Assembly: GCA_031409275.1 (NCBI GenBank)
Contig: JANNXA010000033.1
Coordinates: 128,001 to 192,000 of the forward strand
Source: Planctomycetota bacterium
GTDB lineage: Bacteria; Planctomycetota; B15-G4; SIAN01
Length of the DNA stretch: 64,000 nucleotides
Direction of reading: 5' to 3'
In this document: positions 724 to 15,876 of the stretch, in pieces
Layout of the letters: each line of letters begins with the position of its first letter
How positions within the stretch are numbered: position 1 is the first letter of the stretch
The notes under the pieces: generated by a model
Database searches by the model: none
What the model saw: the letters and a program-made list of their open reading frames with translations, nothing else
What the model was told of the DNA's origin: nothing
Program-made: the position numbers and the translations under genes

Positions 724-837
724 CGTTCGCTCCTCGCCGCTCGTTGCCACCGCAGCCGCCAACGCAGGACGACCGGTACCATACCGCCCCCTTGAGCCGG
801 CGATTTCAGCGCCGGAGTGTCGCACGGAGTCGCATGG

Positions 838-3156
838 ATGAGACGACCACTCCCCTTCGCCTTCGCGGTGGCCGGCAGCCTCCTGATCGTCCCCTCCCGC
901 GGCGTGCCGCGACCGGAGGAGTACGGCTTCAGCGGCCTGATCAACTCGCGCCTGAACGACGGGCTGTTCAAGCTGATCGCCGCCGACGTCGACAGCGACG
1001 GCGACACCGACCTCGCGGTCATCAACAACTCGAAAGCGCGTCTCGATTTCCTGCTGCAGCGTCAACCCGGCGAGCCGCTCGGCGACTCGGCGTCGACGGA
1101 GGCAGGCGACCGGACCAATGACTTCGCCGACGAGGTCCACTTCCGCCGCGACTTCTTCGCCACCGAGCAGAAGGTCAGCGCGCTGGCCATCGCCGACCTG
1201 AACGGCGACGGCAAGAACGACCTCGCCTTCGTGGGCGACTCCGGCAAGCTCACGGTCGCCTACCGCGATGCCAAAGGCGGCTTCGGCGAGCGCGTGCGCC
1301 TCGACCTCGATGAGCTGTCGAACGTCGCGCAGGCGGTGCGCTGCGGCGACATCGACGGTGACGGGCGCAACGACGTGCTGGTGCTCGGCCGCCGCCGCAC
1401 GCAGCTCTTCCTGCAGGGCAGCGATGGTCGGCTGGTCGAGGCGCCGGAACTGCTGAACTCGACTTCGTCGCCCGACGGCTTCGCGCTCGCCGACCTCGAC
1501 GGCGACTCCCGCGGCGACCTCCTCTACGTGAAGGCGGATGCCGACGCGCCGCTGCGTTTCCGCCTCAATCGCGGCGGCGGCGAGTTCGGCCCCGAGCGCC
1601 TCTTCCCGTTCACGGAACTGCGCAGCTACGCCGTCACCGACCTCGACTTCGACGGGCGCACCGACCTCGCGGTCGTGCGACGCCGCAGCGGCCGCGTGGC
1701 GCTGCTCGAGTACGCCGGTGCCGGAGCCGTCGCGCGTGCCGGCGAGATCGTCCTTTCGTCGCCTCGTCTCGTGGCCTACTCGACGCAGAAGGACGAGAAG
1801 CCGCGCGACGAGCTGCTCGCCGACCTCGATGGTGATGGCAAGGTCGAACTGCTGGTCTGCGAACCGTCGGCGGCGCGCGTGGTCCGCCATGGCAGCGATC
1901 CCGATGGTCTCGCGAGCCGTGGCGAAGCGTTCGCGAGCCTGGTGGGTGCCCGCCATCCGCGGCTCGCCGATCTCGATGGCGACGGCCGCTTCGAACTGCT
2001 GGTGGCGGCGCCGGAGGAGGGGGCGATCGGCATCGCCAAGATCGGCGCCGACGGCCGTCCCGGCTTCCCCGAGCCGCTCGGCTACAAGGCCGACCAGCTC
2101 CTCGCGCTCGACGCCGCCGACCTCGACGGCAGCGGCAAGTCGAGCGTGGTCGCGTTGCTCGCCACCGGCAAGGGCGCGACGAAGAGCTACGCGCTCGCGC
2201 GCGTCGCCGCTGGCGAGCCCTTCTCGGTCGAGCTGAAGAAGCTGCCGACCGACCCGAGCGACCTGTGGCTGATCGACCTGAATCGCGACGGGCTGCGCGA
2301 TGCGTACATCACGGTGCCGACCGAAGTGCCGCGCATCCTGCTGGCCGGCAAGGGCAGCGACGGGAAGCTCGCCTTCACGCCGGTCGAGACGCAGGACGTT
2401 CCCGGCCTCGGGTTGCTGAAGGGAGTCGCCCGCACGGCGCTCTTCCATGGCGATGTCGATGGCGACGGCACGCTCGAGCTTCTGGTGCCCGGCCCCAACT
2501 TCGCGCGCGCCTTCACGCTGGGCGCGAAGGGGGTCCCGCAGGTGGTCGCGCAGTGGAACCTCGAGGAGGCATCCGCCAAGGTCGGCTGCGTCGCGGCCGG
2601 CGACCTCGACGGCGACGGCAAGCCGGAGATCCTGGTGCACGACCGCACCAGCCGCACGCTGCGCGCGCTGCGCATGGTCGACGGCGCGGCGCGCACGATC
2701 GCGCGCGTCGAGACGGCCGACCTCGAACCCAAGGGGCTGCGCGTCGCCGACCTCGACGGTGACGGCGCGCGCGACGTCGTGCTGTTGGGCGCCGAGCGCT
2801 TCGCGGTGGTCCAATCGGGCCGCGCCGACCCGGGCTTCGTCGAGACCGACGACTACGAGTGCCCGCTGAAGAACGCGTTCCTCGACCAGCTCGCGTTCGG
2901 CGACCTCAACTCGGACGGCATCGTCGATGCGGTGATCACCGACTCGAGCAAGCACCTGATCACCATCGCGGCCCACGTCGAAGGCAAGCTGCACCACGTG
3001 TTGCAGTTCCCGATCTACTCCGAGAGCATCTTCGAGCGAGACGGAGGCGGCGGCCGCGAGCCGCGCGAAATCGTCATCGCCGATTTCACGGGCGACCAGA
3101 AGGCCGACCTCGCGCTGCTGGTCCACGACCGCATCCTCGTCTATCCGCAGGAGTGA
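838..3156 (+). CDS. Secreted FG-GAP/VCBS repeat (beta-propeller) protein
   Basis: Many DxDGDGxxD repeats (ADVDSDGDTDL, ADLNGDGKNDL, GDLDGDGKPEI); signal-like N-terminus; GGAG upstream of ATG 838. Confidence 0.88.
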   Translation: MRRPLPFAFAVAGSLLIVPSRGVPRPEEYGFSGLINSRLNDGLFKLIAADVDSDGDTDLAVINNSKARLDFLLQRQPGEPLGDSASTEAGDRTNDFADEVHFRRDFFATEQKVSALAIADLNGDGKNDLAFVGDSGKLTVAYRDAKGGFGERVRLDLDELSNVAQAVRCGDIDGDGRNDVLVLGRRRTQLFLQGSDGRLVEAPELLNSTSSPDGFALADLDGDSRGDLLYVKADADAPLRFRLNRGGGEFGPERLFPFTELRSYAVTDLDFDGRTDLAVVRRRSGRVALLEYAGAGAVARAGEIVLSSPRLVAYSTQKDEKPRDELLADLDGDGKVELLVCEPSAARVVRHGSDPDGLASRGEAFASLVGARHPRLADLDGDGRFELLVAAPEEGAIGIAKIGADGRPGFPEPLGYKADQLLALDAADLDGSGKSSVVALLATGKGATKSYALARVAAGEPFSVELKKLPTDPSDLWLIDLNRDGLRDAYITVPTEVPRILLAGKGSDGKLAFTPVETQDVPGLGLLKGVARTALFHGDVDGDGTLELLVPGPNFARAFTLGAKGVPQVVAQWNLEEASAKVGCVAAGDLDGDGKPEILVHDRTSRTLRALRMVDGAARTIARVETADLEPKGLRVADLDGDGARDVVLLGAERFAVVQSGRADPGFVETDDYECPLKNAFLDQLAFGDLNSDGIVDAVITDSSKHLITIAAHVEGKLHHVLQFPIYSESIFERDGGGGREPREIVIADFTGDQKADLALLVHDRILVYPQE

Positions 3157-3161
3157 TTCCG

Positions 3162-5057
3162 ATGCCGCGTCCTTGGTTGATCGCCGCGTTGCCGTCCGCC
3201 TTGGCCCTGGTTCCGCAGGAGGCGCCGGCGCCCGCCGCTCCGGTCCGCGCGCCCGGCTACGAGACGATCTGCGCCGCCGACACGATGCTCTTCCTCGGCA
3301 TCGACCACCTCGATGACCTGCTCGCCGATTGGCGCGCTTCTGCGTACGGACGCATGCTCGCCGACGAGGGCGCGGCGCCGGTGCGCGCCAGCTTCGAAGC
3401 GATGCTCGCGGCGATGGCCGACGACTCGCGCGGCGAGTTCGGCGTCGACGTCGTCGACATGGTCCGCAAGATCGACGGGCGGCTCGGCTTCGCGGTCGCC
3501 GGCGACGTGATGGCCGATGCCCATGACGGCCACGGCATCGCCGCCTTCGAGTCGACCGAGCACGCCGACGAGCTGCGCGCGCTGATGGCGACGGCGCTGC
3601 AGAAGATGGTCGAGGCGGGCGAAGCGGTGGTGAAGCACGAGATGCTCGGCGAGCACGAGCTGATGCAGATCACGCCGCTGGGCGAGGGCGATCAGGGGCG
3701 CTTCCAGATGGCGCAGGCGGGCGGCACGCTCGCGCTCGGAACGGCGGTCGGCAAGGCGCTGGAGCGCGAGGACTTCGCGCGCTTCGTGCAGACGCTCGAT
3801 GGGCAAGGCGGCGAGACGCTCGCGGCGCAGCCGAGCTTCCGCGATTCGCTCGCCGCACGCAGCGGCGGGGTGAAGCTCTTCTTCGACACCGGCCGCCAGA
3901 TCCGCGCCGGCATGTCACCGCCACTCGAGGACGGCAGCGAAGCGCCTGATGCGCGACTGCAACGAGTGCTGGGGCTCGATCGGTTTGGCGCGCTCAGCTC
4001 CCACTTCACGATGAACGCGGAAGGGATGCACGCGCTGCTCCATCAGGCATGGGGCCAAGGCGGCATCGCGGCGGTGCTGCAGGCGCTGCTGGTCGGCGGA
4101 GATCACGGCCTCTTCAAGCTGCTGCCGGCCGATGCCGCGATGGCGGTCGGGTCGCAGTTCGACCTCAAGGCGGGCCTCGACGCGGCGGATCAGCTGGCGA
4201 AGGAAGCGGGAATGGGCCCGCTCTTCGGCGCTCCGCCGGCGGAAGGGAACTCGCCGGAGACGACGGCGGCTCCCGACGAGTTCCAGCCGCGCCGTGACCT
4301 GCTCGACCACCTCGACGGCCGCATCGCCTTCACTGCGGTGCCGACCGCGCCGGAGGAGTCGTTCATGATGAGCGGCCTGCAGGGCGGAGCGTCCGTCAAC
4401 TACGCGATGCTGCTCGGTACCCGGAACAGCGCAGCACTCGGCGCCTCGATCGACAAGTTGCTGCGCAGCCAGGGAATGCACGCCGCGCGCCGCAAGAGCG
4501 AGTTCGAGGGCTTCCTGATCTACACGCTGCCGCTCGGGATCACGACGATCCACTACACGATCGTCGATGACGCGATGATCACCTCGCCGTCACTCTCGAT
4601 CCTGCAGGACATCCTGCGCCGCCGCTCGAATGCGGAGCTCGCGAACCTCCACGCTTCAACCCTCTTCGCCCGGCAGCGGGAAGGGCTCGAGGGCTCGCCC
4701 GGTCTCCTGCTTTGGGTCGCGAACTCCCCGGAGCTCTTCGATTCCATGACGGGCGTCGCCGAACGGCAGGTGGAGAGCGGTGGCGGCTACTACGACGACG
4801 GGTCCGGCGACGACAACGGCAGCAACGACAGTGGCTACGACAGCGGCTACGACGAGGGCGAGTCGCGGCAGCCCGCGTCGGAAGGCGACGAGCCAGCGGC
4901 AGCGCCCGAGGATCCGGTGCAGCAGCGGGCGAAGGCGTTCCTCGAGGCGTTCAGTGCGCTCGACAATGCGCTGCTGAAGAAGCACCTGCCGGGCGGCTCG
5001 GTGATGGCGATGCGCTTCGATGCGGGCGGCGCCTGGCTCGAACTCGTTTCTCGCTGA
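3162..5057 (+). CDS. Exported hypothetical protein (possibly DUF3352-like)
   Basis: ATG 5 nt after the upstream stop; signal-like MPRPWLIAALPSALALVPQ; typical codon usage; acidic low-complexity insert near the C-terminus. Confidence 0.65.
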   Translation: MPRPWLIAALPSALALVPQEAPAPAAPVRAPGYETICAADTMLFLGIDHLDDLLADWRASAYGRMLADEGAAPVRASFEAMLAAMADDSRGEFGVDVVDMVRKIDGRLGFAVAGDVMADAHDGHGIAAFESTEHADELRALMATALQKMVEAGEAVVKHEMLGEHELMQITPLGEGDQGRFQMAQAGGTLALGTAVGKALEREDFARFVQTLDGQGGETLAAQPSFRDSLAARSGGVKLFFDTGRQIRAGMSPPLEDGSEAPDARLQRVLGLDRFGALSSHFTMNAEGMHALLHQAWGQGGIAAVLQALLVGGDHGLFKLLPADAAMAVGSQFDLKAGLDAADQLAKEAGMGPLFGAPPAEGNSPETTAAPDEFQPRRDLLDHLDGRIAFTAVPTAPEESFMMSGLQGGASVNYAMLLGTRNSAALGASIDKLLRSQGMHAARRKSEFEGFLIYTLPLGITTIHYTIVDDAMITSPSLSILQDILRRRSNAELANLHASTLFARQREGLEGSPGLLLWVANSPELFDSMTGVAERQVESGGGYYDDGSGDDNGSNDSGYDSGYDEGESRQPASEGDEPAAAPEDPVQQRAKAFLEAFSALDNALLKKHLPGGSVMAMRFDAGGAWLELVSR

Positions 5058-5072: not shown

Positions 5073-6503
5073 TCAGCGAATCGCGACGGCGGCGTCGGAC
5101 TCGGCGGGTGGGGCCGGGAACGCGACGCCCGCCGCACGCAGCAGCGCGAACGGCGGCGTGCCGCCCGCGAAGATGAAGACGTGCTGGTTGTCGAGCGTGA
5201 CGGCGCGCGTGGAGTCTTGCTCGCGCACGGTGAGCGTGACCGCGTCACTGCCGATCACCGTCACCTCGCTGCGGAAGTAGACGGTGACCCGCCCGCCGAC
5301 CAGTCCGCTGTTGTTCCCGCTGGCATTCCCGCTGGCCTGCGCGGCCGCGATGCGTTCCTCGTTGCGCCGCTTGAGCCGGAAGAACGACTCCTTGCGGTAG
5401 CTGAGCGTCACTCGGTTGCCAGGTTGGCCAGCGAGCGCCAGCGCCGCCTCGACCGCGCTGTCACCGCCGCCCACCACGAGCACGTCGACGCCGCGGTAGA
5501 GCGCGGCATCGAGCAGGCGGTAGGCGACCTTGGTCTGCTCCTCGCCGGGGACTCCGAGCTTGCGTGGCGTGCCGCGCCGACCAAGCGCGAGCACCACCGA
5601 ACGGGCTCGCACCTCCGCGCGTTCGCCAGCCTCGCCGGTCTCGCTTTCGCCGGTGCGACGGGTGGTCACGACGAACGCGTCGCCGTCACGCAAGATCGAC
5701 TCGACGCACGTCTGCGCGCGTACGCGCAACGGGAAGCGGCGCGCGGCGTCCTCGAACAGCGAGACGAGCTCTTCCTTCAGGTACTCGTTCTTGGCCAGGC
5801 AACCGATCAGCGGCAGCTCGACCGGTTGCGTCATGACCAGCTTCTGGCGCGGATAGTGCAGCAGCGTGCCGCCCAACGCGTCCTGCTCGATCAGGACGTG
5901 GGAGAGCTCGAGCTCGATGGAACGCAGCGCGGCAGCAAGCCCCGCCGGCCCGGCGCCGACGATGGCGACATCGACCGTCTCGGCGTCACGTCGGTGGGAC
6001 GGCGCACGGTCGCGGCGCCGCGCGATCTCGTCGACCGCGGTGGTGGCCTGCCCGATGGCATGCCGGATGAGCGCGATGCCCGAGAGTTCGCCGGCGATGA
6101 AGAGGCCCGGCACGCTCGATTCCTGGACGGCGGAGAGCAGCGGCAGATCCTCGCGCAGCGCCAGCGCACCGAGTCCGACGTGGATCGCGCCGACCGGACA
6201 GGCCGTTTCGCAGCGACCGTGACCGACGCAGCGCGCGCCATGGACGACTCGCGCGACGCCGTCCAGCACCGCCAGCACCCCCTCTTCGGGGCACGCCTTC
6301 ACGCACAGCCCGCAGCCGACGCACTGCAGCGCGGCGATCTGCGGATGCTGTGCCGTCGGTTCGGCGGAGCCGCGCGCGCGCGCTTCGTCGAGCTCGGCAC
6401 GCGCCGACGCCTCGCGCTGGCGTGCCGCGCGCCGCTCGATCCAGGCCAGCGCGAGCAGCAGCGGCACGAGGGCGGCGCAGAATCCGAGGAGCGGCAGCAG
6501 CAT
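5073..6503 (-). CDS. Membrane-anchored 2x[4Fe-4S] ferredoxin / FAD-NAD(P)H oxidoreductase fusion (TrxR/FNR/YpdA-like)
   Basis: N-terminal TM helix; CVGCGLCVKACP and CVGHGRCETACP; FAD motif VAIVGAGPAG; NAD(P) motif VVGGGDSAVE; VPGLFIAGE. Confidence 0.88.
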   Translation of the reverse strand: MLLPLLGFCAALVPLLLALAWIERRAARQREASARAELDEARARGSAEPTAQHPQIAALQCVGCGLCVKACPEEGVLAVLDGVARVVHGARCVGHGRCETACPVGAIHVGLGALALREDLPLLSAVQESSVPGLFIAGELSGIALIRHAIGQATTAVDEIARRRDRAPSHRRDAETVDVAIVGAGPAGLAAALRSIELELSHVLIEQDALGGTLLHYPRQKLVMTQPVELPLIGCLAKNEYLKEELVSLFEDAARRFPLRVRAQTCVESILRDGDAFVVTTRRTGESETGEAGERAEVRARSVVLALGRRGTPRKLGVPGEEQTKVAYRLLDAALYRGVDVLVVGGGDSAVEAALALAGQPGNRVTLSYRKESFFRLKRRNEERIAAAQASGNASGNNSGLVGGRVTVYFRSEVTVIGSDAVTLTVREQDSTRAVTLDNQHVFIFAGGTPPFALLRAAGVAFPAPPAESDAAVAIR

Positions 6504-6544: not shown

Positions 6545-8206
6545 TCAAAAGCGCCAGGTGAGCCCGAGGTCGAGCGACAGCGTGTCGATCGAGTCGCCGA
6601 GGCTCTTGGCGACGCGCGTCCACAACAGCGACTTCGCGCCGAGCTGCTGCGTCAGGAACAACGACGCCGTATGGCTGAAGTACGCGTCGCCGCCGTCGAT
6701 CTCGAGCGTGGTCGCGTCGTAGCCAAGCCGCAACGAAGTGGCTGCGGTCGGAGTCCAGGTGAGACCTCCGCTGCCGCCGAAGCCCGACTGATCGAGGCCG
6801 ACGAGGTTGAACAGGGCGAGATCGCCGCCGATCGTCTCCCAGCCAAACAGCTTCGAATCGCGGGAGCGCAAGGTGACCTGCAGAGCGCTTGGAGTGCCGT
6901 CGCCCATCACTTCGGCGACCTCCTGCTCGAGCGCGAGACCGGACTTCCATGTCTCGACGGCGGCAAGGGCCGCGCGCGTGCGACCACGCCCATACAGAGC
7001 GTCGTCGGCAGCGATCTGGCGCAGCGAATCGGTGTCGGGGTTCTCGTAGTGCGACCAGGTGGCGCGCAGGCCGAAGGGTTCGCTTGCTTGCCAGAAACCG
7101 CTGGCGTGCAGCCGCGTGAGACCGGCGCCCGAGCGGCGCGCCTCGTTGCCGTCGTAGACGTCGACCTGCGCGGAGGTGCGCAGCCAGTGGCCGCCTCTGA
7201 AGTTGGCGCTGACTTCGCCAAGCAGCGCGTGCTGATCGGCACTTCCTTGGAACCAGCTCGCCATGGCGCCGCCGGTCGCGGCGAGGCGCGAGCCGCCGCT
7301 GCCGCGATGCTCGAGCGCGCCCCAGCCCGCGAGGACGAGCTCATCGCTGCGCGGCGCAAGCTCGTCGCGATCGGGACGGAAGCCGAGCAAGGCACCGACG
7401 CGCGCGCCGTCGCCGACGACCTTCTCGGCATAGCTGCCGTCGATGCGGCCGATGCCGGGCAGCGCCTGCGGGAGGAAGCGGCCGATGCCGAGGACGCTGC
7501 CGTCCTCGAAATGGCGGCGCAACACCAACGTGTCGGCGCGCAGCCGCCACTCGTCCTGCTTGGGATCGCCGTCGTAGCCATCCCCGCTGCGCCGATTCAC
7601 GTCGAAGCGGAACTGCAGTGACCACGGATCGCCGCCGAGGCGCTCGACATCGCCGCTGGCGAAGAGGCGCAGGTTGGCGTAGTCGCGACCGTTCTCCGCG
7701 TCGTGCAGCCATCCGCTGGTGAGGCCGGTGGTGCCGTGGAAGAAGTTGCCGCGCGTCGTCGTTCCCGCCGCGACGGAGGGCGCCAGCAACGGCCGGAACG
7801 GCGCGTTCGGGTCGGTGCGTTCGCCGGTCGCTGGCGCGCGCGGGGTCGTCTCGCTCGGCGGTGCCAGGCCGCGCAGCACGGCGCGATCGCCGGCCTTCAC
7901 GACCACTCCCGGCTCGGTCGACACGAACGCCGCGAAGCACGACGTCGCGCTGACGTGCCGCACTTCGAACTCGGCGAGCACGCGACCGTCGCGCTCGATG
8001 CTCCCGCGCGTGCCAGCGACGACGCCAGCATCGCTGCCTGCCCCGAGATAGACGCCGTCGGCGGCGACCTGGGTGACCGTTGCTTCAACGTCACGAGCGA
8101 CGTCGCGCGCGCTGCGATGGGCGACCTCCTGAGCCGCCGCGTTGCCGGCCGCGGCCGAGCCGAGCAGCGCGAGGAGCGTCGCCGCGATGCGGTGTGCCGC
8201 GTTCAT
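6545..8206 (-). CDS. Putative outer-membrane beta-barrel protein with small N-terminal periplasmic domain
   Basis: ATG 8206 overlaps the upstream TGA (ATGA); signal peptide MNAAHRIAATLLALLGSAAAGNAAAQ; amphipathic beta-strands; C-terminal LDLGLTWRF, a typical BAM signal. Confidence 0.78.
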   Translation of the reverse strand: MNAAHRIAATLLALLGSAAAGNAAAQEVAHRSARDVARDVEATVTQVAADGVYLGAGSDAGVVAGTRGSIERDGRVLAEFEVRHVSATSCFAAFVSTEPGVVVKAGDRAVLRGLAPPSETTPRAPATGERTDPNAPFRPLLAPSVAAGTTTRGNFFHGTTGLTSGWLHDAENGRDYANLRLFASGDVERLGGDPWSLQFRFDVNRRSGDGYDGDPKQDEWRLRADTLVLRRHFEDGSVLGIGRFLPQALPGIGRIDGSYAEKVVGDGARVGALLGFRPDRDELAPRSDELVLAGWGALEHRGSGGSRLAATGGAMASWFQGSADQHALLGEVSANFRGGHWLRTSAQVDVYDGNEARRSGAGLTRLHASGFWQASEPFGLRATWSHYENPDTDSLRQIAADDALYGRGRTRAALAAVETWKSGLALEQEVAEVMGDGTPSALQVTLRSRDSKLFGWETIGGDLALFNLVGLDQSGFGGSGGLTWTPTAATSLRLGYDATTLEIDGGDAYFSHTASLFLTQQLGAKSLLWTRVAKSLGDSIDTLSLDLGLTWRF

Positions 8207-9498
8207 TCGCGGCCATCCGGATGGCAGGAGAAGCACGCCGGGCTGCTCCAGCTGTAGCCGTTCACCCCTTGATGTTCGGAGTCCATCTTCGACTTGCGGT
8301 GCTCGTGGCAGTCGATGCAGGAGAACGCGGGGTAGTTGCCGGTCGTGTGGCAGTCGGCGCAACCGAGCCCACCGTGATTTCCGCTGAGGGGGAAGGAGTC
8401 GTGGTCGAACCTGCCATCGCCCCAAGTGGCCGGCGTGTGGCACTGCTCGCAGTTGGTGCCGAATCCGGCGGCGGCGTGGTCGGGGTTCTGCGTTCCGGCG
8501 TAGTCGTCGGCGTGACAGCTGTAGCAGTCGCGCGGCGTTCCGGCGTAGATGCCGTTCCCGTGGCATGCGCTGCACGCGAGCGACGCGTGCTGACCCTGCA
8601 GCGGGAAGGTGGTGTGGAGGAAGCCGCCCGCGCCCCAGCCGATGGGCGTGTGGCACTGCTCGCAGCTCGTTCCAAAGCCACTCGACGAGTGCGGCGGGTT
8701 CTGGGTGCCGGCGTAGTCGTTGACATGGCAGCTGTAGCAGTCGCGCGGCGTGCCGGCGAACACGCCACCCACGTGGCAGTCGGAACAGTCGACCGAGCGA
8801 TGCTGGCCGAGCAGCGCGAAGGTGGTGTGGTTGAAGTGCGCCGCGTTCCATGCGGTGGCCGAGTGGCAGCGCTGGCAGTCGTCGCGATAGCCGAGCGCGA
8901 GGTGGTCGGGACTGGTCGCGCGCGCGAGATCGTCCTGATGGCACGCGGCGCACTCGAGCGGCGCGCCGACGAAGCGGCCGACGCGCGACTGTTCATGGCA
9001 GCGATCGCAGGCGGCGGCGAGGTGAGCACCCGCCAGCGGGAAGCGCGTCTTCGCATGCTCGGCGATCAGGCCGGTTGGCTGCCATTGCTGCTGCGAGTGG
9101 CATTGCGTGCAGTCGTTGCCGAGCGTGCTGTCGTGCGGGTCAAGGTGGCAGCCACCGCAGCCGCGCACCGCGAACTCGCGCACCGGGCCGCGGTCGTTGT
9201 GGCAGCGCAGGCAGCTGGCGGTCGCGTGCGCTCCTTCGAGCGCGAGGCCCGTTTGCGCGGCGTGGTCGAAGGTGAAGTCGCTCTTCAGCACGTCCCAGCG
9301 TTCTGGCAGGTGGCAGAGCGAGCAGTCGGTCGGAAAGGTGCGATGGGGGACGAGCGGGCCGAAGCGCCCCTCGTCCCAGCTCTGCCTTGGCGCCGAGGTG
9401 AGTGCGTAGCACGCCGCCAGCAGCGAGACGCCGGCGAGCGCGAGGAGGGCGCGGCGTCGCGCAGCACGCAACGGGTCAGCGTCCGGTGTGGCAGTCAC
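8203..9498 (-). CDS. Multiheme cytochrome c, 16 CxxCH motifs, probable lipoprotein
   Basis: 16 CxxCH counted by hand; lipobox-like RRRALLALAGVSLLAAC; repeated triheme units. Start is GTG 9498 or TTG 9507. Confidence 0.92.
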   Translation of the reverse strand: MTATPDADPLRAARRRALLALAGVSLLAACYALTSAPRQSWDEGRFGPLVPHRTFPTDCSLCHLPERWDVLKSDFTFDHAAQTGLALEGAHATASCLRCHNDRGPVREFAVRGCGGCHLDPHDSTLGNDCTQCHSQQQWQPTGLIAEHAKTRFPLAGAHLAAACDRCHEQSRVGRFVGAPLECAACHQDDLARATSPDHLALGYRDDCQRCHSATAWNAAHFNHTTFALLGQHRSVDCSDCHVGGVFAGTPRDCYSCHVNDYAGTQNPPHSSSGFGTSCEQCHTPIGWGAGGFLHTTFPLQGQHASLACSACHGNGIYAGTPRDCYSCHADDYAGTQNPDHAAAGFGTNCEQCHTPATWGDGRFDHDSFPLSGNHGGLGCADCHTTGNYPAFSCIDCHEHRKSKMDSEHQGVNGYSWSSPACFSCHPDGRE

Positions 9499-11380
9499 GA
9501 CATTCAACTCCGAGCGGAACGTAGTGGATCATCACGCGATCATCGGAGCGTCCACCCGCGACCTTCACCGGCGAATGGCAGGCCGAGCACGCGAGCCGCG
9601 CGTGCACGCCATCGAGCGCGAATCGCGAGTCGCGTTGGTGGTCGAACGTCACCGGAAGCCACCGCTCGTCGGACTGGTGGCAACGGTTGCAATCGTCGCC
9701 CTTGCGCGTGAGCTGGCCTCCGTGCGGATCGGCGTGGCAGCTCTTGCAATCGCGCGGCGTGCCGGCGAATGCCCGAACCGCGGTGTCGTTCGCGCGGTGG
9801 CAATCGTTGCACGCGACGGCGAGGTGCGCACCGGTGAGCGCTGGTTGATGGCGCTGCGCGGTGAAGGTCGATGGCGCGAAATGACGCTCGTCGTGGCAGC
9901 TCGCGCAGCCCCCCGGCCGCGTGCGGAACTGCCCGCCGTGCACGTCGACGTGGCATTGGTCGCAAGCCGTTGGCGTCGCGCGGAAGCGCACGGGCGCACC
10001 CGGTTCGGGTGCACGATGGCACCCATCGCACCCCACGTTGGCATGGGCGCCGAGAAGCTCGGGATGGCGCGCCGCGAAGTCGAAGCGCGACGGCGTGAAG
10101 CGCGACTCGTCGTGGCACGCCTCGCACCCGTCGCCGCGCGCGGCGAACTGGCCACCATGCGGATCGACGTGGCACGCGCTGCAGGTGGTGGGGGTGGCGA
10201 CGAAACGCGCCGGAGCACCTGGTGTCGGCGGCTGATGGCATCGTTCGCAGGCCGCGTCCGCGTGACGAGCGCGCAACGGCGGCGCGTGCGCCGCCGCGGT
10301 GATTCGCGACGGAACGAAGTGGGTCGCGTGGCACTCCGCGCAATCGGATTCACGGGCGCCGAACTGGCCACCGTGCGGCGACTCGTGGCAGGTAGTGCAA
10401 TCGGACGACGCACGTCCGGGGAATCGCTTCGCGAACGGAACCGCCGGATCGTGGCAGGCGCGGCACTCGCGATCGGCATGCGGCGGCGTCAGCGCGAATC
10501 CGAGTTTCGCATGCTCGTCCACGGTGACGCGAGCCGACGCGGCGGCGAAGACGAGGTCGCTCGCATCGTGGCAGGTGGTGCAGCGACCGGCTGGCAGCGC
10601 GCGGTGCGGCGTCGCATGGCACTGCTCGCACGTCGTGCCTCGCACCACGGCGAAGTCGAGTGGGGCGCTGCGCACCATCGTCGCGTCGATCACCGTCGCC
10701 GCCGGTACGACCGCGGATGGATGGCACTTCGCGCAGCTCACCTGCGCGTGAGCTCCAAGCAGGGGAAAGTGCTGCGCATGCTCGAACGCCGCGGCCGGCT
10801 TGAAGCTCTCCTGCCCATGGCAAGCGCCGCAGTCATTGCTCATCGCGTCGCCGTGCGGGTCGTCGTGGCAGCTCGCGCACGCCTGCGTGAGCCCGAGGTA
10901 GGTGCGTCGCGTCGAAGCGATCGCGAGGCGATCAGCGGTCCCGTCGGGCAGCATCGCGACGTGACAGCGCGCGCAGTCGAGCGGCTGGTGGGCGCCGGTC
11001 AGCTTGAAGTCGAGGTGGCGGTGGGCATTCGCCGACGCGGATCCCTCGCCCCAGGAGTGCTCATGGACCAGCGGGAAGTCGGCACCCCAGTGCTCGCCGT
11101 GGCATCCGCCGCAATCGAGCGGCCGCTCGGCGGCGAGTGAGCCGTGCCAACCGGTGCCGCTCGACAACTGCGCGGCGATCTCGGCGTGGCAGGAGGTGCA
11201 GCCATCGACCGCGCCGACGTGCGCGTGGCATCGTTCGCAACCGTCGAGTCCATGCAACTCGGGCAAGGCAGCGTGAACCGCGGAGAGATCGCCGGGGCTA
11301 GGCGCCACGCGGGCGAGGTTGATGGCCAGCGCAAGGACGGTGAGGCCAAGGAGCGTGAAGACGATGGCACGCGCGCTCAT
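9476..11380 (-). CDS. Multiheme cytochrome c, 23 CxxCH motifs
   Basis: 23 CxxCH counted by hand; ATG 11380 overlaps the upstream TGA; N-terminal hydrophobic segment followed by SPGDLSAVH. Confidence 0.92.
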   Translation of the reverse strand: MSARAIVFTLLGLTVLALAINLARVAPSPGDLSAVHAALPELHGLDGCERCHAHVGAVDGCTSCHAEIAAQLSSGTGWHGSLAAERPLDCGGCHGEHWGADFPLVHEHSWGEGSASANAHRHLDFKLTGAHQPLDCARCHVAMLPDGTADRLAIASTRRTYLGLTQACASCHDDPHGDAMSNDCGACHGQESFKPAAAFEHAQHFPLLGAHAQVSCAKCHPSAVVPAATVIDATMVRSAPLDFAVVRGTTCEQCHATPHRALPAGRCTTCHDASDLVFAAASARVTVDEHAKLGFALTPPHADRECRACHDPAVPFAKRFPGRASSDCTTCHESPHGGQFGARESDCAECHATHFVPSRITAAAHAPPLRARHADAACERCHQPPTPGAPARFVATPTTCSACHVDPHGGQFAARGDGCEACHDESRFTPSRFDFAARHPELLGAHANVGCDGCHRAPEPGAPVRFRATPTACDQCHVDVHGGQFRTRPGGCASCHDERHFAPSTFTAQRHQPALTGAHLAVACNDCHRANDTAVRAFAGTPRDCKSCHADPHGGQLTRKGDDCNRCHQSDERWLPVTFDHQRDSRFALDGVHARLACSACHSPVKVAGGRSDDRVMIHYVPLGVECRDCHTGR

Positions 11381-12333
11381 CGCCACCACCTCGAGAAGTC
11401 GAGCGAGCCCCAGCGCACCGCGAGTGCGATGTGGCAGATCGCCGTCCCCACCATCACCAGAGCCAGCCAGCGGTGGAGGAAGCGCCACGAAGCCATCAGG
11501 GCCGAGAGGTCACGCAGGCGCGCCAGTCGCTGCGCCTCGCGCAGGATCGTGGCCAGCAGCGGCTCGATGCGGCGCCGCACGGCCGGGTCGGGTGACCGTT
11601 CACGCAACAGCTCGCGGTAGCGCGCATGGGCGGCGCGCGCGTTCGCGTCGCCGAAGAGGACGCCGAAGAGCGCGCGCAGGCGCGACGGCGAGCCCTGCGT
11701 CTCCGCCGGAAGCAGCTCGAGCGGCGGCAGACCGAGACCCGTGAGCTGGGTACGAAGCTGCGTGAAGCGGGAATGGGCCTCGTCCAGCGAAAGCTCGCGC
11801 CCCTCGCGCGTGCGGGGCAGCTGGGCGAGGACGTAGCGGCCGATGATGCCGGTCGCGAGCACCACGCCGAGCGCCACGCTCGCGACCGTGGCGGAGGCGC
11901 TGCGCAGGTGACCGGCCGCGTGCACCAGCACGCAGCCTCCCGCGAGTAGCCCCGATACGACATGGAGGTCCATCCAGCCGCGCAGGCCGCCGAGCCGCGT
12001 GCTGGCGACGAGGCGTCGACGCACGAGGTAGGCGAGGTTGATCCCCATCAGTGCGACCGCGGCGACTCCAAGCGCGAGGCCGACGTCGCCGCTCGATCGC
12101 AGGCGCGGGTGGCGCGGATCGAGGGCTTGTGCGGTCAGGGGCGCCGTGTAGTAGCTGCATTCCGTGCACAGGAGTTGCACGAGGAAGCCGATGCCCGCCA
12201 GCAGTGCCAGCGGCGCCCACCAGGCGGTGCGCAGTCGATTCGCTGGATCGTTCTGCTGGATCACCGGGTCACGAACTCCGCCGCGCCGTCCAGGAAGTGG
12301 AATGGGCGTCGGACGGACGGACGCCGCGTTCAC
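11377..12333 (-). CDS. Integral membrane protein, ferric-reductase/cytochrome-b-like transmembrane domain
   Basis: Several TM helices carrying paired His (WMDLHVVSGL...VLVH; WRFLHRWLA...ICHIA). Start codon uncertain. Confidence 0.75.
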   Translation of the reverse strand: MNAASVRPTPIPLPGRRGGVRDPVIQQNDPANRLRTAWWAPLALLAGIGFLVQLLCTECSYYTAPLTAQALDPRHPRLRSSGDVGLALGVAAVALMGINLAYLVRRRLVASTRLGGLRGWMDLHVVSGLLAGGCVLVHAAGHLRSASATVASVALGVVLATGIIGRYVLAQLPRTREGRELSLDEAHSRFTQLRTQLTGLGLPPLELLPAETQGSPSRLRALFGVLFGDANARAAHARYRELLRERSPDPAVRRRIEPLLATILREAQRLARLRDLSALMASWRFLHRWLALVMVGTAICHIALAVRWGSLDFSRWWR

Positions 12334-12396: not shown

Positions 12397-15300
12397 TCAG
12401 CGGCCGGGGGTGAACTCGCGCAGGCGCAGCTGGCGCAGTTCGACGCGACTGCCATCGCCGAGCACGAATCCGAACGTCCCGTTGCGGCGACCGTCGTGGT
12501 CCTCCGTGTCGACCGTGACGGAACCATTCAGCTGGACGGTCAGGCGCGGGCCGACGGCGGTGACGAGGAAGTGGTTCCAGCCGGTGCGATCCGGCAACGG
12601 CCACCAGATCTCTTCGCGCGGTTGCACGAGGACGCCGCGACCCTCGGGCTCGGTCAGGCGGCCCCAGGCCGAACCTCCGGCATAGGTGGCGTAGGAGAGC
12701 GGCGCGCGCGAGTCGACTCCGTCACGGAGCGGCTCGGCCTGGCGGAACAGGAATCCGAGCGATTGGGTCGGAGATCCAAGTCGCGCCTCGAACTCGAACG
12801 CGAAGTCGCCGACCGTCGGCGCTAGCCCCGTCCAGCCGTTGACGTCGTTGTCGGCGGCGACGAGCACTCCGTCGACCAGGCTCCATCCTTGCGGCACCTG
12901 TGGCGCGATTCCGTCGAGGAAGGGCCGCCAGCTCGGCTGTGCCGCCGCCGGCTCGATCGTCGGCGCCAGCAGCCACGCGGCGAGATCGCTGATCTGCTCC
13001 AACGAAAGGGCATCCGCGAGCCCTTCGGGCATGATCGACTTGGTGGCCGGCTTGCGCTTCTCGATCTGCGCGGCGAGCACCTCGACCTGCTTGCCGGTCG
13101 CATCGACCAGCACGACCCGTTTGTCGTCGGCGATCAACGGCAGGCCCGAGATCACGTCTCCGTTCTTGAGGAAGACGTTCTCGCCGCGGTACTGATCGGA
13201 GATCGTGCGCGAGGGCGTGACCATCGACTCGAGCAGGTCGCGGGCGCCGAAACGCGAACCGATGGTGGTGAGATCGGGGCCCACCGCGACGCCGAAGTCG
13301 CCGCGCTTGTGGCACTTGGCGCAGAGCTGCTGGTAGAGCAGCGCGCCGTCAGGCGGCGAGCGGTGCGGGGCGTGCAACGTGCGCTCGACGAAAGTGAGGA
13401 CGCGATCGAACTCGCGCGGCTCCGCGGCGGAGGCGGGCGCGGCCGGTGCCGACGCCGCCGCCTTGATCCGCTCGGCCGCCTCCTGATCGAGCGCCGTCCG
13501 CTCGCTGTCACTGAGTCCGACGTCCGCATCGTCGCGGATGTTGGTCAGGTAACCGACGTAGCTCATGCCGCCGGAGTTGGCGCGGATCGCCTCATCGAGC
13601 CAACGGTGCAGTTCGACGCGCGCGCCTGCGGGCCACCCCTCCTTCACGCAGCGCAGCGCATCGGCGTAGAGGATCTTCTGCTCGCGCGACGGCTCGAGGA
13701 CGAAGGTGCGCCACAGCAGTTCGGCCGCGCCTTTCGGGGCGGCATTCGCGATCAGCTGGGCCCAGTCGCGATTCGCGGCCGGATCGACGCATGGGAAGCC
13801 GGTGAGGAGTTGCTCGCCGGCGAACTTGGCGTCAGGCGCGGCGATCCGCCAGAGCTGCAGCGCGCGCAGCACGGCGTGACGGAGCTCGCGCGGCGATTCG
13901 CTGTCGAGCGAGCCCAGCAGCACGACGCCGAGCTGCAGCACGACGGCGGCATCGGTGTCGTCGACCGGCGCGCGTCCGACCAGCCGCATGCGCGCCAGCG
14001 CGATCATGCTCTCGGCCTGCGCCATGGGCGACTTCGCCGCGGCGAGGGTCGCGGCCACTTCGCCGGCGGGTCGCCGCTCGAGTTCGCGCGCGGCGAGGAA
14101 GCGCCGGAAGCGGTCGGGCGAGGCGAGTTCGGTCGCAAGCGCGGCGACGGGTGCGCTGTGCAGTTTCTGAGCCAGGCTGGTGGCGGTGTCGCGGTCGGCA
14201 GCGGGAGCGACGGCCGGGGTCGCGGCAACGGGCAGCTCGCTCGCCGCAGGATCGACGCAACGCAGACGGTGGACGCCGCCGACCGTGCCACGACCGCCGA
14301 CCGCGAAGAGGAGCGAACCATCCGCGTCCATCGCGAGGTCGGTGACATTCAGCGGGTGACCGCGCAGGAGGACATCCGTGCTGGCGGTGTAGCTCACGCC
14401 GCGCGGCGTCGCGCGGAAGGCGTAGATCACTCCCAGCGACCAGTCTCCGGCGAGAAGAGCGCCCTGGAAGCGTCGCGGAAACTGCGTGCCCGTGACCAGG
14501 CACATGCCCGTCGGCGAACCGCGACCCGCTTCGACCGCGGGCGGCAACGAATCGGCGGCCACGTTCGGCCACACGCTCGAACCGGTCCTCCAGCCGTATT
14601 CACCGCCCGGCACGACGTGGACGATGCGGACCGGTCGGTACCACGGCAGCCCGACGTCCCACTCCATGTCGGAGTCGAAGGTGAAGAGCTCGCCACGCGC
14701 GTCGAACGCGAGGTCGTAGTGGTTGCGGAAGCCGGCGGCGAAGAGTTCGCAGCGGCCGCTCTCCGGTTCGACGCGAAGGATGATGCCGCCGGGTGCCTTG
14801 CACTCGGTGGCGTGGCCACGCGGATCGAGATAGGTCGGCAGCAGATGCCCTTCGTAGGTGATCGAGTAGGGCGATCCCGCCGCGGGTGGCTGGCCGAGGC
14901 GCGCGTGGTTGCCGACGGCGATGTAGAGCGCGCCGTCGGGGCCGGGCACGATCGCATGCGGGCCGTGCTCGCCGAGGTCGCCATCGAGAGCGACGACCTT
15001 GATCGGCGCGGTCGCACCTTCGGGGAGGCGATAGAGGCCGTGGCCGTTGGGCCCGGCTCCGGTGAACCAGGTCGTGCCGTCCTGCCAGTACATCCCCTGG
15101 CAGCCTTGGATCGCGGCCGTGAACGGCGTGATCTCCTCGGCGCGTCCATCGCCATCGGCATCGACGAGCGAGAAGATCGGCCCGCCCTCGACGTTCGCCA
15201 GCAGTCGCCGCGGACCCGCGGTGGTCAGCGCGACGACGGAGCCGAAGCCGTCGGCGACCGTCTCGATCACGAAGCCGGGCAGCGGATCGAAGCTCGGAGC

Positions 15301-15876
15301 CGGCGGGGCGTGGAGTTCACCCCACGGAGCGGCGCCGTAGGGGGCGACGACGCGCGCGCGCGCCGCGTCGGCCGCCATCGGCGCGCTGGCGGTGTCGGGG
15401 TCATACGGACGGCAGAGCCACGCCTCGTCGGACACCACGACCGGGCGGGTGCCGTCGGCACAGCGGACCTCGACGGCCAGCAAGAAGCCGGCGGGACCGC
15501 CCTCGTTGGCGACGCGCGCGACGAACTCGTTGCGGCCGCGGCGCAGCAGCTCCGTGACGTCGAGCGTCGTCAAGCGCGACCAGTCGTCGCCACGTCCAGC
15601 GACGGTCCCATTCACGCTCAGCCGAAAGCGGTTGTCGCTCGAGACGGCGACCAGCGCGCGCGTCGGCTCGGAGCCGAGCTCGAACGTGCGCGTGAGGAGC
15701 CACTCGTCCTTGCCGTCCGCGGTGGCCTTTGCATCGCCCCAGATCCAGCGTGCTTGCGCGAGTGGTGCGTTCTGGCCGGTGAGTCGCGTTGCGACGCCGA
15801 GCAGCGCGAGTGCGGTCAGCACGTGGACGAAGGCGGCGTGGTGGCGTCGGGGCGAACGGTGGAGGTGCGTTTCCAT
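12397..15876 (-). CDS. PVC-type membrane-bound dehydrogenase / heme-binding CxxCH protein with N-terminal glycosidase-like beta-sandwich and C-terminal DUF1080-like domain
   Basis: GEHGPHAI, GFRNHYD, DSDMEWD..PWYRP, GRGSPTG; CAKCH...GPDLT; SIMPEGL; C-terminal WNHFLVTAVG..VQLNG. Confidence 0.85.
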   Translation of the reverse strand: METHLHRSPRRHHAAFVHVLTALALLGVATRLTGQNAPLAQARWIWGDAKATADGKDEWLLTRTFELGSEPTRALVAVSSDNRFRLSVNGTVAGRGDDWSRLTTLDVTELLRRGRNEFVARVANEGGPAGFLLAVEVRCADGTRPVVVSDEAWLCRPYDPDTASAPMAADAARARVVAPYGAAPWGELHAPPAPSFDPLPGFVIETVADGFGSVVALTTAGPRRLLANVEGGPIFSLVDADGDGRAEEITPFTAAIQGCQGMYWQDGTTWFTGAGPNGHGLYRLPEGATAPIKVVALDGDLGEHGPHAIVPGPDGALYIAVGNHARLGQPPAAGSPYSITYEGHLLPTYLDPRGHATECKAPGGIILRVEPESGRCELFAAGFRNHYDLAFDARGELFTFDSDMEWDVGLPWYRPVRIVHVVPGGEYGWRTGSSVWPNVAADSLPPAVEAGRGSPTGMCLVTGTQFPRRFQGALLAGDWSLGVIYAFRATPRGVSYTASTDVLLRGHPLNVTDLAMDADGSLLFAVGGRGTVGGVHRLRCVDPAASELPVAATPAVAPAADRDTATSLAQKLHSAPVAALATELASPDRFRRFLAARELERRPAGEVAATLAAAKSPMAQAESMIALARMRLVGRAPVDDTDAAVVLQLGVVLLGSLDSESPRELRHAVLRALQLWRIAAPDAKFAGEQLLTGFPCVDPAANRDWAQLIANAAPKGAAELLWRTFVLEPSREQKILYADALRCVKEGWPAGARVELHRWLDEAIRANSGGMSYVGYLTNIRDDADVGLSDSERTALDQEAAERIKAAASAPAAPASAAEPREFDRVLTFVERTLHAPHRSPPDGALLYQQLCAKCHKRGDFGVAVGPDLTTIGSRFGARDLLESMVTPSRTISDQYRGENVFLKNGDVISGLPLIADDKRVVLVDATGKQVEVLAAQIEKRKPATKSIMPEGLADALSLEQISDLAAWLLAPTIEPAAAQPSWRPFLDGIAPQVPQGWSLVDGVLVAADNDVNGWTGLAPTVGDFAFEFEARLGSPTQSLGFLFRQAEPLRDGVDSRAPLSYATYAGGSAWGRLTEPEGRGVLVQPREEIWWPLPDRTGWNHFLVTAVGPRLTVQLNGSVTVDTEDHDGRRNGTFGFVLGDGSRVELRQLRLREFTPGR

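Follow-up and report, generated by a model that had tools for sequence, protein, structure and literature searches.

A circularly permuted FAD/NADPH flavoprotein with a fused dicluster ferredoxin lies in a PCC3-type operon and is a likely entry point of its predicted electron wire

We analysed a window of 64,000 nucleotides from a Planctomycetota bacterium (assembly GCA_031409275.1, contig JANNXA010000033.1, positions 128,001 to 192,000), in which five adjacent minus-strand genes form a PCC3-type operon. Its features, in window coordinates, are:

11377..12333, minus strand: PCC3-type inner membrane protein (IMP), with five hydropathy peaks, two WX3HX13H motifs and (S/T)GxxG; start codon uncertain
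9476..11380, minus strand: 23-haem c-type cytochrome with an N-terminal membrane anchor; 23 CxxCH, Cytochrome_C7 E 3e-31
8203..9507, minus strand: 16-haem c-type cytochrome with an N-terminal hydrophobic stretch and Cys; 16 CxxCH, Cytochrome_C7 E 1e-19; start codon uncertain
6545..8206, minus strand: predicted outer-membrane beta-barrel of 553 residues, with a signal-peptide-like N-terminus and C-terminal WRF
5073..6503, minus strand: permuted 2xFe-S FAD/NADPH flavoprotein of the TrxR/YpdA type, membrane-anchored, 476 residues (P0001), from profiles, model and BLAST
6438..6503, minus strand: its N-terminal transmembrane anchor, residues 1-22 (Kyte-Doolittle window 2.5)
6174..6347, minus strand: its dicluster ferredoxin, residues 53-110 (Pfam Fer4_7, E 7e-9)
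6006..6143, minus strand: its permuted segment, residues 121-166, a GD-type FAD strand (GE here) and the next helix, from a segment profile, crossed BLAST and model
5118..5981, minus strand: its colinear core, residues 175-462, with FAD dinucleotide motif, ALG, NADPH domain and GxxP, from structure alignment to Bdr 7a76

The genes are read in the order IMP, 23-haem cytochrome, 16-haem cytochrome, barrel and, last, flavoprotein, a context that the preliminary description of the flavoprotein had overlooked. ATGA overlaps join the IMP stop to the ATG of the 23-haem gene and the 16-haem stop to that of the barrel gene. In the IMP, His124, His138, His287 and His301 are invariant in 65 sequences and W120 and W283 are conserved, while the glycine motif reads TGIIG, against SG in the consensus. 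Five helices, two WX3HX13H motifs and SGxxG are the signature of PCC3 and PCC4 IMPs of about 300 residues (He et al., 2017; PMC5566968, cited here from part of the text), and from its motifs the IMP is predicted to bind two b haems. Its match to the ferric reductase domain PF01794 (E 5e-4) fell under the cut-off, and a fold search stayed at background level (STEAP4, Z 7.1, rmsd 5.6, 154 aligned; CybB, Z 7.0, rmsd 4.0, 137 aligned). Judged from their N-termini only, the 23-haem cytochrome is likely periplasmic and the 16-haem cytochrome is likely a lipoprotein of the outer face. Haem density is about 27 residues per haem (23 in about 634 residues, 16 in 434), a low ratio like that of PCC3. The barrel gene product had no Pfam match; as a lead only, its Atlas neighbours are unnamed and the nearest named ones include an outer-membrane barrel/porin at 0.85.

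The operon shares with PCC3 the IMP signature and two large multihaem cytochromes, and its predicted barrel gene would match the porin gene of PCC3 (PMC5566968, in part). PCC3 has been described as four genes (PMC5566968, PMC9900912/PMC10734462, PMC8788666, PMC11429942 and 10.1101/2025.02.27.639646, each in part), and as quinone-linked with a median of 34 haems in its outer cytochrome (PMC5566968, in part), whereas the operon here adds a flavoprotein and has 16 haems in that position. In a Gallionellaceae-type family, our IMP profile found clusters of IMP, 24-haem cytochrome and barrel with E of about 1e-55 to 1e-70; a putative homology to the published PCC3 proteins would run via these clusters. 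Upstream of the operon (12397-15876, minus strand) lies a gene for a 1159-residue exported protein that combines a 3-keto-disaccharide-hydrolase domain with a cytochrome c region of one CxxCH and resembles the planctomycete PVC-type haem-binding dehydrogenases. Convergent with the flavoprotein gene (817-5057, plus strand) are genes for an FG-GAP repeat protein and then a 633-residue exported protein with no Pfam match, and we saw no sign of a link between these and the flavoprotein.

All five motifs of the superfamily of two-dinucleotide-binding-domain flavoproteins (tDBDF) (GAGPAG, ALG, GGGDSA, GTPP and GE) occur in the flavoprotein. From the N-terminus, the ferredoxin (53-110) is followed by GLFIAGE (133-139), a helix (146-166), GAGPAG (183-188), ALG (306-308), GGGDSA (345-350) and GGTPP (447-451), and the stop comes 25 residues further on; the moved segment reads ESSVPGLFIAGE and then runs into the helix, within residues 121-166. 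This confirms the preliminary description, which had placed the GLFIAGE segment before the FAD motif and the end of the protein soon after GxxP. An AlphaFold model (pLDDT 92.4, pTM 0.88) gives the segment as strand 134-138 and helix 146-166, and predicts a helix at 2-44 that comprises the anchor and an Arg-rich stalk to residue 44. The N-terminal sequence lacks a twin-Arg motif; since it also has an Arg-rich stretch behind the anchor, the Fe-S and flavin domains are likely cytoplasmic by the positive-inside rule.

A GTDB scan gave at least 80 homologous loci from at least 15 named phyla, and counts out of 80 below refer to the 80 among the matches listed. The first ferredoxin motif of our protein is CxxCxxCxxxCP. 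The second, CxxHxxCxxxCP, has His and not Cys at its second position, a detail missed earlier. This His95 is found in 75 of the 80 listed homologues, and Cys61, 67, 71, 92, 98 and 102 in 78 of them, so that the second cluster is likely 3Cys+His-ligated or 3Fe-4S. In 9 of the 80 listed, Ser or Ala takes the place of the second Cys in the first motif; one such homologue (L081:16960-18309) reads CxxSxxC there, which makes both its clusters atypical. Residues G183, G185, G188, G345, G347, P451, G138 and E139 are invariant in all 80 listed loci.

The order DBM-ATG-DBM-GxxP-GD has been reported for 1,664 members of the superfamily (PMC1924876, in part), and the flavoprotein departs from that order in that its GD-type motif stands first. 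This order is not a product of chance: in all 80 listed loci the segment comes before the core, as it also does in 120 of 120 near-length homologues and in 119 of the best 120 longer ones. We rejected a frameshift or assembly artefact as the cause because the motif order is intact in all 80 listed loci. In matches that begin at residue 178, the YpdA profile TIGR04018 is covered over positions 1-261 of 316 and Pyr_redox_2 over 2-251 of 291; the 40-55 positions left unmatched indicate that the C-terminal part of each profile is absent from the end of the protein. Likewise, model residues 175-465 align (VIA-align) to residues 2-272 only of the 324 in Bdr 7a76 (Z 24.6, rmsd 2.4, 266 aligned, 29% identity), and alignments to TrxRs and FNRs run to about their residue 260-270. 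The missing part was traced with a profile of the moved segment, built from 81 sequences and run against 177,635 PDB sequences: all 47 matches at E<=1 are flavoproteins, hit at the late FAD strand and helix after the NAD(P)H domain (for example TrxR 5nii, 252-287 of 309, and GltD, 407-445 of 456). These matches are mostly weak singly, the best, to GltD, reaching E 1e-4; as a single sequence the segment had no NCBIfam match, so a profile was needed. BLAST against a colinear sister protein gave two crossed blocks, with query 175-462 matching subject 4-270 and query 121-160 matching subject 279-318 (47% identity, E 1e-6). Crossed blocks are the pattern of a circular permutation, and we conclude that the permutation, proposed at the outset from motif order, is real and that the protein is by descent a permuted member of the superfamily. 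Homology, together with a pLDDT of 86-98 over residues 121-170, suggests that the moved segment contacts the FAD.

We then considered which class of flavoprotein this is. The preliminary description held that no redox CxxC lies between LGVPGEE and GGGDSA, and the sequences bear this out: the protein has YRLLD at the TrxR position, and 0 of the 80 listed homologues has a CxxC there. Its suggestion of an NADPH-type motif also gained support, since GGGDSA is accompanied by Arg370 and Arg376, invariant in 80 of 80 listed homologues, in a YRK-x4-R motif one residue longer than HRRxxxR. Together these indicate NADPH, for which the predicted flavoprotein would have a preference. Against the TrxR profile TIGR01292 the protein scored 77 bits (cut-off 343), and a separate CxxC-bearing TrxB is encoded on contig C36 of the same genome. 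YpdA/Bdr gave the best sequence and fold matches: Bdr 7a76 is the closest solved fold of the core, and both lack CxxC and carry NADPH-type motifs. The flavoprotein could accordingly reduce low-molecular-weight disulfides as Bdr does and stand among its neighbours by coincidence, but this is very improbable. Its score to TIGR04018 is 132 bits against a cut-off of 340, and the position of Bdr Cys14 (residue 187) is Ala in 70, Gly in 7 and Ser in 3 of the 80 listed, although Cys14 of the Firmicute Bdr orthologues is absent from distant homologues too (PMC8113031). In addition, the GD strand and helix are moved N-terminally, and the membrane anchor, the ferredoxin and the tight linkage to IMP and cytochromes described below also speak against this reading. 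We rejected a role as bacillithiol or thioredoxin reductase in view of the motifs and the sub-cut-off profile scores.

The model also matches FNRs with Z 18-19, and it has the TrxR fold without CxxC and the 2'-phosphate Arg motif of the TrxR-like FNRs. These proteins (B. cereus FNR1/2, IruO, C. tepidum FNR) likewise work with one-electron partners (PMC8564101, PMC10294844, both in part). They are, however, colinear soluble homodimers that carry an FAD-stacking residue on a C-terminal extension past the last helix (PMC10294844, in part). In our protein, in which unlike in theirs the ferredoxin is fused, the corresponding helix 146-166 leads within about 10 residues to the first FAD motif, leaving no free extension for such a residue. 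The group of glutamate synthase small chain (GltD), DPD and NfnB, whose ferredoxin is helical, differs from the flavoprotein in being colinear and soluble and in its ferredoxin type. It nevertheless shares the combination of an N-terminal Fe-S domain with a two-dinucleotide flavoprotein and a one-electron exit on the si side (GMS subgroup; PMC1924876, in part). By the features tested, then, the flavoprotein is not a member of the TrxRs, Bdr or the classical TrxR-like FNRs; database names for the family are 'NAD(P)-binding domain-containing protein' or 'thioredoxin reductase' (at least 8000 candidates scored).

The nearest unpermuted relatives are colinear sisters of about 800 residues (core 32% identity, segment 41-48%) that consist of core, segment, two cNMP-binding domains and an Fe-S domain, in that order. 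With a colinear sister as query we found 147 representatives, of which 87 were colinear, 18 permuted and 42, mostly fragments, without the segment. In a core-only tree of 63 of the 406 classified sequences, obtained by quick tree searches and with this genome's TrxB, on a long branch, as sole outgroup, all 42 permuted rows fell together, set off from the rest by a branch with SH-aLRT values of 95 (LG+G4) and 92 (mixture model). A single origin of the permutation is therefore likely. The deepest permuted rows of this tree lack an N-terminal ferredoxin and start directly at the segment, which suggests that the permutation probably predates the ferredoxin fusion. This does not bear out the idea, put forward in the preliminary description, that the permutation serves to bring the ferredoxin beside the FAD. 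We saw no tandem-duplication intermediate, with two segments or two full cores, among 240 homologues and 147 representatives; 27 homologues have merely an additional partial core.

Several permuted relatives have unusual layouts. One deep branch of the clade is a paralogue in the same genome (C51:272128-274600, L090), in which the permuted core, without N-terminal ferredoxin, precedes several predicted membrane passes and, at the C-terminus, an Fe-S domain, a part that is presumably NapH/MauN-like. P0051, P0100 and 22 similar homologues of 608-619 residues carry an additional degenerate NADPH-type domain at the C-terminus. In P0191, which is also fused to an IMP, the permuted flavoprotein seems inserted between the halves of a multi-cluster Fe-S domain, and P0197, P0213, P0231 and P0240, of the same clade, show the same order of segment, core and IMP.

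The colinear sisters resemble our protein in their surroundings. An IMP-like gene lies within 3 kb in 15 of 16, and those at L086:11080-16127, L087 and L088 adjoin a divergent IMP and a 9-haem cytochrome. They differ in having the usual motif order, the two cNMP domains and a C-terminal Fe-S domain, in lacking a membrane anchor and, at the three loci fetched, in lacking a barrel gene. They are possibly a cyclic-nucleotide-regulated, porin-less relative of the PCC3-flavoprotein module. They match, by length and context, an unnamed 'other redox protein' of 796-805 residues that is listed for porin-less clusters, where its gene adjoins IMP-like ones (He et al., Suppl. Table 6; PMC5566968). The two cNMP-binding domains, and fusions of some permuted relatives to FHA or TPR domains, could mean that the module is mainly a sensor that reports redox state across the envelope, and not a path for bulk electrons. 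We consider this decidedly improbable, as Pfam found no signalling domain in the 5073..6503 protein, and 39 c haems and a barrel would be a large investment for sensing.

Across genomes, the flavoprotein is tied to the same partners as in the window. Among the 80 listed loci, 65 have an IMP homologue and 66 a cytochrome of at least 7 haems; both are present in 42 of the 43 with flanks of at least 8 kb on both sides, and of the 9 with neither, 8 have less than 4 kb on at least one side. Flavoprotein and IMP are fused in 17 of these 80, and in the 120 best longer homologues the chain itself includes an IMP in 48 cases and a multihaem domain in 47, with both in one. In 41 relatives of the source genome, read by eye, all 19 strong IMP matches are fused to a flavoprotein or lie within 5.2 kb of one. 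Among 120 genomes of the Gallionellaceae-type family, 64 have both proteins, 1 the IMP only, 2 the flavoprotein only and 53 neither, and in that sample 54 of 59 full-type flavoprotein matches lie within 3 kb of an IMP. At all five such loci fetched there, the flavoprotein gene lies upstream in divergent orientation from a cluster of IMP, 24-27-haem cytochrome, one or more other cytochromes and a barrel-like gene, a layout like that of published PCC3. These co-occurrence figures overstate independence, because the genomes compared are kin and the IMP profile, itself built from flavoprotein-anchored loci, is biased. Nevertheless, neighbourhood and fusions show that the earlier label of an internal ferredoxin:NAD(P) oxidoreductase was incomplete, since they link the protein to a cytochrome-b-type membrane protein and a multihaem wire.

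Not every IMP has such a neighbour. In the Gallionellaceae-type sample, 54 of 72 strong IMP matches adjoin a flavoprotein and 18 have none within 3 kb; these 18 are mostly second copies, and two second copies (L091, L092) are complete PCC3 clusters without it. Complex prediction for flavoprotein and IMP scored 0.36 against 0.00 for the best control, with contact agreement of at least 33% and partner pLDDT of at least 71. In calibration, 116 of 157 solved complexes and 2 of 215 mismatches reached the mark; those that did so with scores of 0.60 or less were 18 of the 157 solved complexes and both mismatches, so that the prediction lends weak support to a direct contact. Both observations count towards an alternative in which the IMP is a quinol-active cytochrome b and the flavoprotein, acting as an accessory NAD(P)H dehydrogenase, supplies electrons to the IMP or the quinone pool, the wire being able to run without it. 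We regard this alternative as unlikely, given that just 1 of 65 IMP-positive genomes in the Gallionellaceae-type family is without any flavoprotein and that direct fusions of the flavoprotein to IMP or cytochrome are many.

Altogether, we think it likely that the permuted CxxC-less flavoprotein, with its anchor and dicluster ferredoxin, is the cytoplasmic entry point of the predicted PCC3 wire; cofactor binding, direct contact with the IMP and the direction of flow are what we infer in the following scheme. NADPH would pass hydride to the FAD at its re face, and electrons would leave the FAD one at a time for the two Fe-S clusters. From there, they would reach the cytoplasm-side haem b of the IMP, whose pairs of His would each bind a haem, one at either face of the membrane, and then the second haem b across the membrane. 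The path would continue along the 23- and 16-haem cytochromes (39 c haems) and out via the barrel to an acceptor outside the cell. A cluster of the 3Fe type or with a His ligand would suit an upward potential step towards haem b. In its predicted domain orientation, the model is nearer to flavin-reducing forms of TrxR and to Bdr (rmsd 2.4-3.0) than to flavin-oxidising forms (about 7), an arrangement that could give both NADPH and the fused ferredoxin access to the FAD without the domain rotation that TrxR needs. In the superfamily, the re face of the flavin serves the nucleotide and the si side serves one-electron acceptors (PMC1924876, in part).

Outward flow from NADPH would be downhill with no energy conserved, so reduction of an outside acceptor or redox balancing is a more likely role than respiration. 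NOX, FRE and STEAP proteins similarly run from NADPH through FAD to two transmembrane b haems, to which the proposed system would add a wire; it differs from them in its TrxR-type flavin domain (that of NOX is plant-FNR-type), in the interposed Fe-S clusters and in its output to c haems. The likeness of the HX13H motif of the IMP to the ferric reductase domain has been noted (He et al., PMC5566968, in part). The expression data are divided: PCC3 genes of ES-1 are down on Fe(II) (PMC8788666, in part), which speaks for the scheme, whereas the IMP of one PCC3 copy in strain CL21 is up in iron-oxidising cells (10.1101/2025.02.27.639646, in part) and a quinone-active IMP has been proposed (He et al., PMC5566968, in part), both of which count against the scheme, as do the background-level fold matches of the IMP and the IMPs and complete clusters without an adjacent flavoprotein.

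The same wiring could also run in reverse, with a low-potential outside donor (mineral, electrode or partner cell) supplying electrons inward for the flavoprotein to reduce NADP+ for biosynthesis. TrxR-type FNRs are reversible, and the family is common in the Gallionellaceae-type sample. Fe(II)-type donors, however, lie far above NADP+/NADPH in potential, and most carriers among the matches listed are Acidobacteriota, Planctomycetota and other groups that are not known as mineral oxidisers. PCC3 has been proposed for electron uptake (PMC5566968, in part), but the fall of the ES-1 genes on Fe(II) again points the other way, and we find the reverse direction improbable. Returning to outward flow, we put forward a broader proposal as a serious but tentative one: PCC3 may be a five-part, quinone-independent machine that leads from NADPH in the cytoplasm to the surface of the cell and occurs in at least 15 phyla, in effect an envelope-spanning NADPH oxidase or ferric reductase. 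It would be driven by a permuted clade that arose once from a colinear ancestor with cNMP domains and was later fused to ferredoxins, cytochrome b and multihaem wires.

Literature searches, which covered few subscription papers, gave no published account of this permutation and no published flavoprotein partner of PCC3. The part of PMC1924876 cited here nowhere contains 'permut'; the main text of PMC5566968 has 0 occurrences of 'ferredoxin' and of 'FAD', and PMC10734462 has 0 of 'flavoprotein', 'thioredoxin' and 'pyridine'. Supplementary Figure 4 of He et al., with domain layouts of PCC4 'redox genes', may depict related cNMP/FAD/Fe-S proteins. The family is a clear-cut natural case of circular permutation, in a superfamily for which a fixed motif order had been reported, and it can be compared with unpermuted sisters that still exist. 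It is also large and widespread, not a one-off. PCC3 clusters have so far been counted as candidate iron-oxidation or quinone-linked conduits, and PCC3 is still a candidate conduit (10.1101/2025.02.27.639646, in part); an NADPH-using fifth subunit, if true, would alter the expected direction and purpose of the wire.

Finally, the source genome encodes a second conduit (C28:21559-31350, L089), in which a flavoprotein-IMP fusion in one reading frame is followed by 23-haem, barrel-like, 7-haem and 11-haem genes. With 22 reading frames of at least 5 CxxCH in the whole genome, the organism is rich in multihaem cytochromes.
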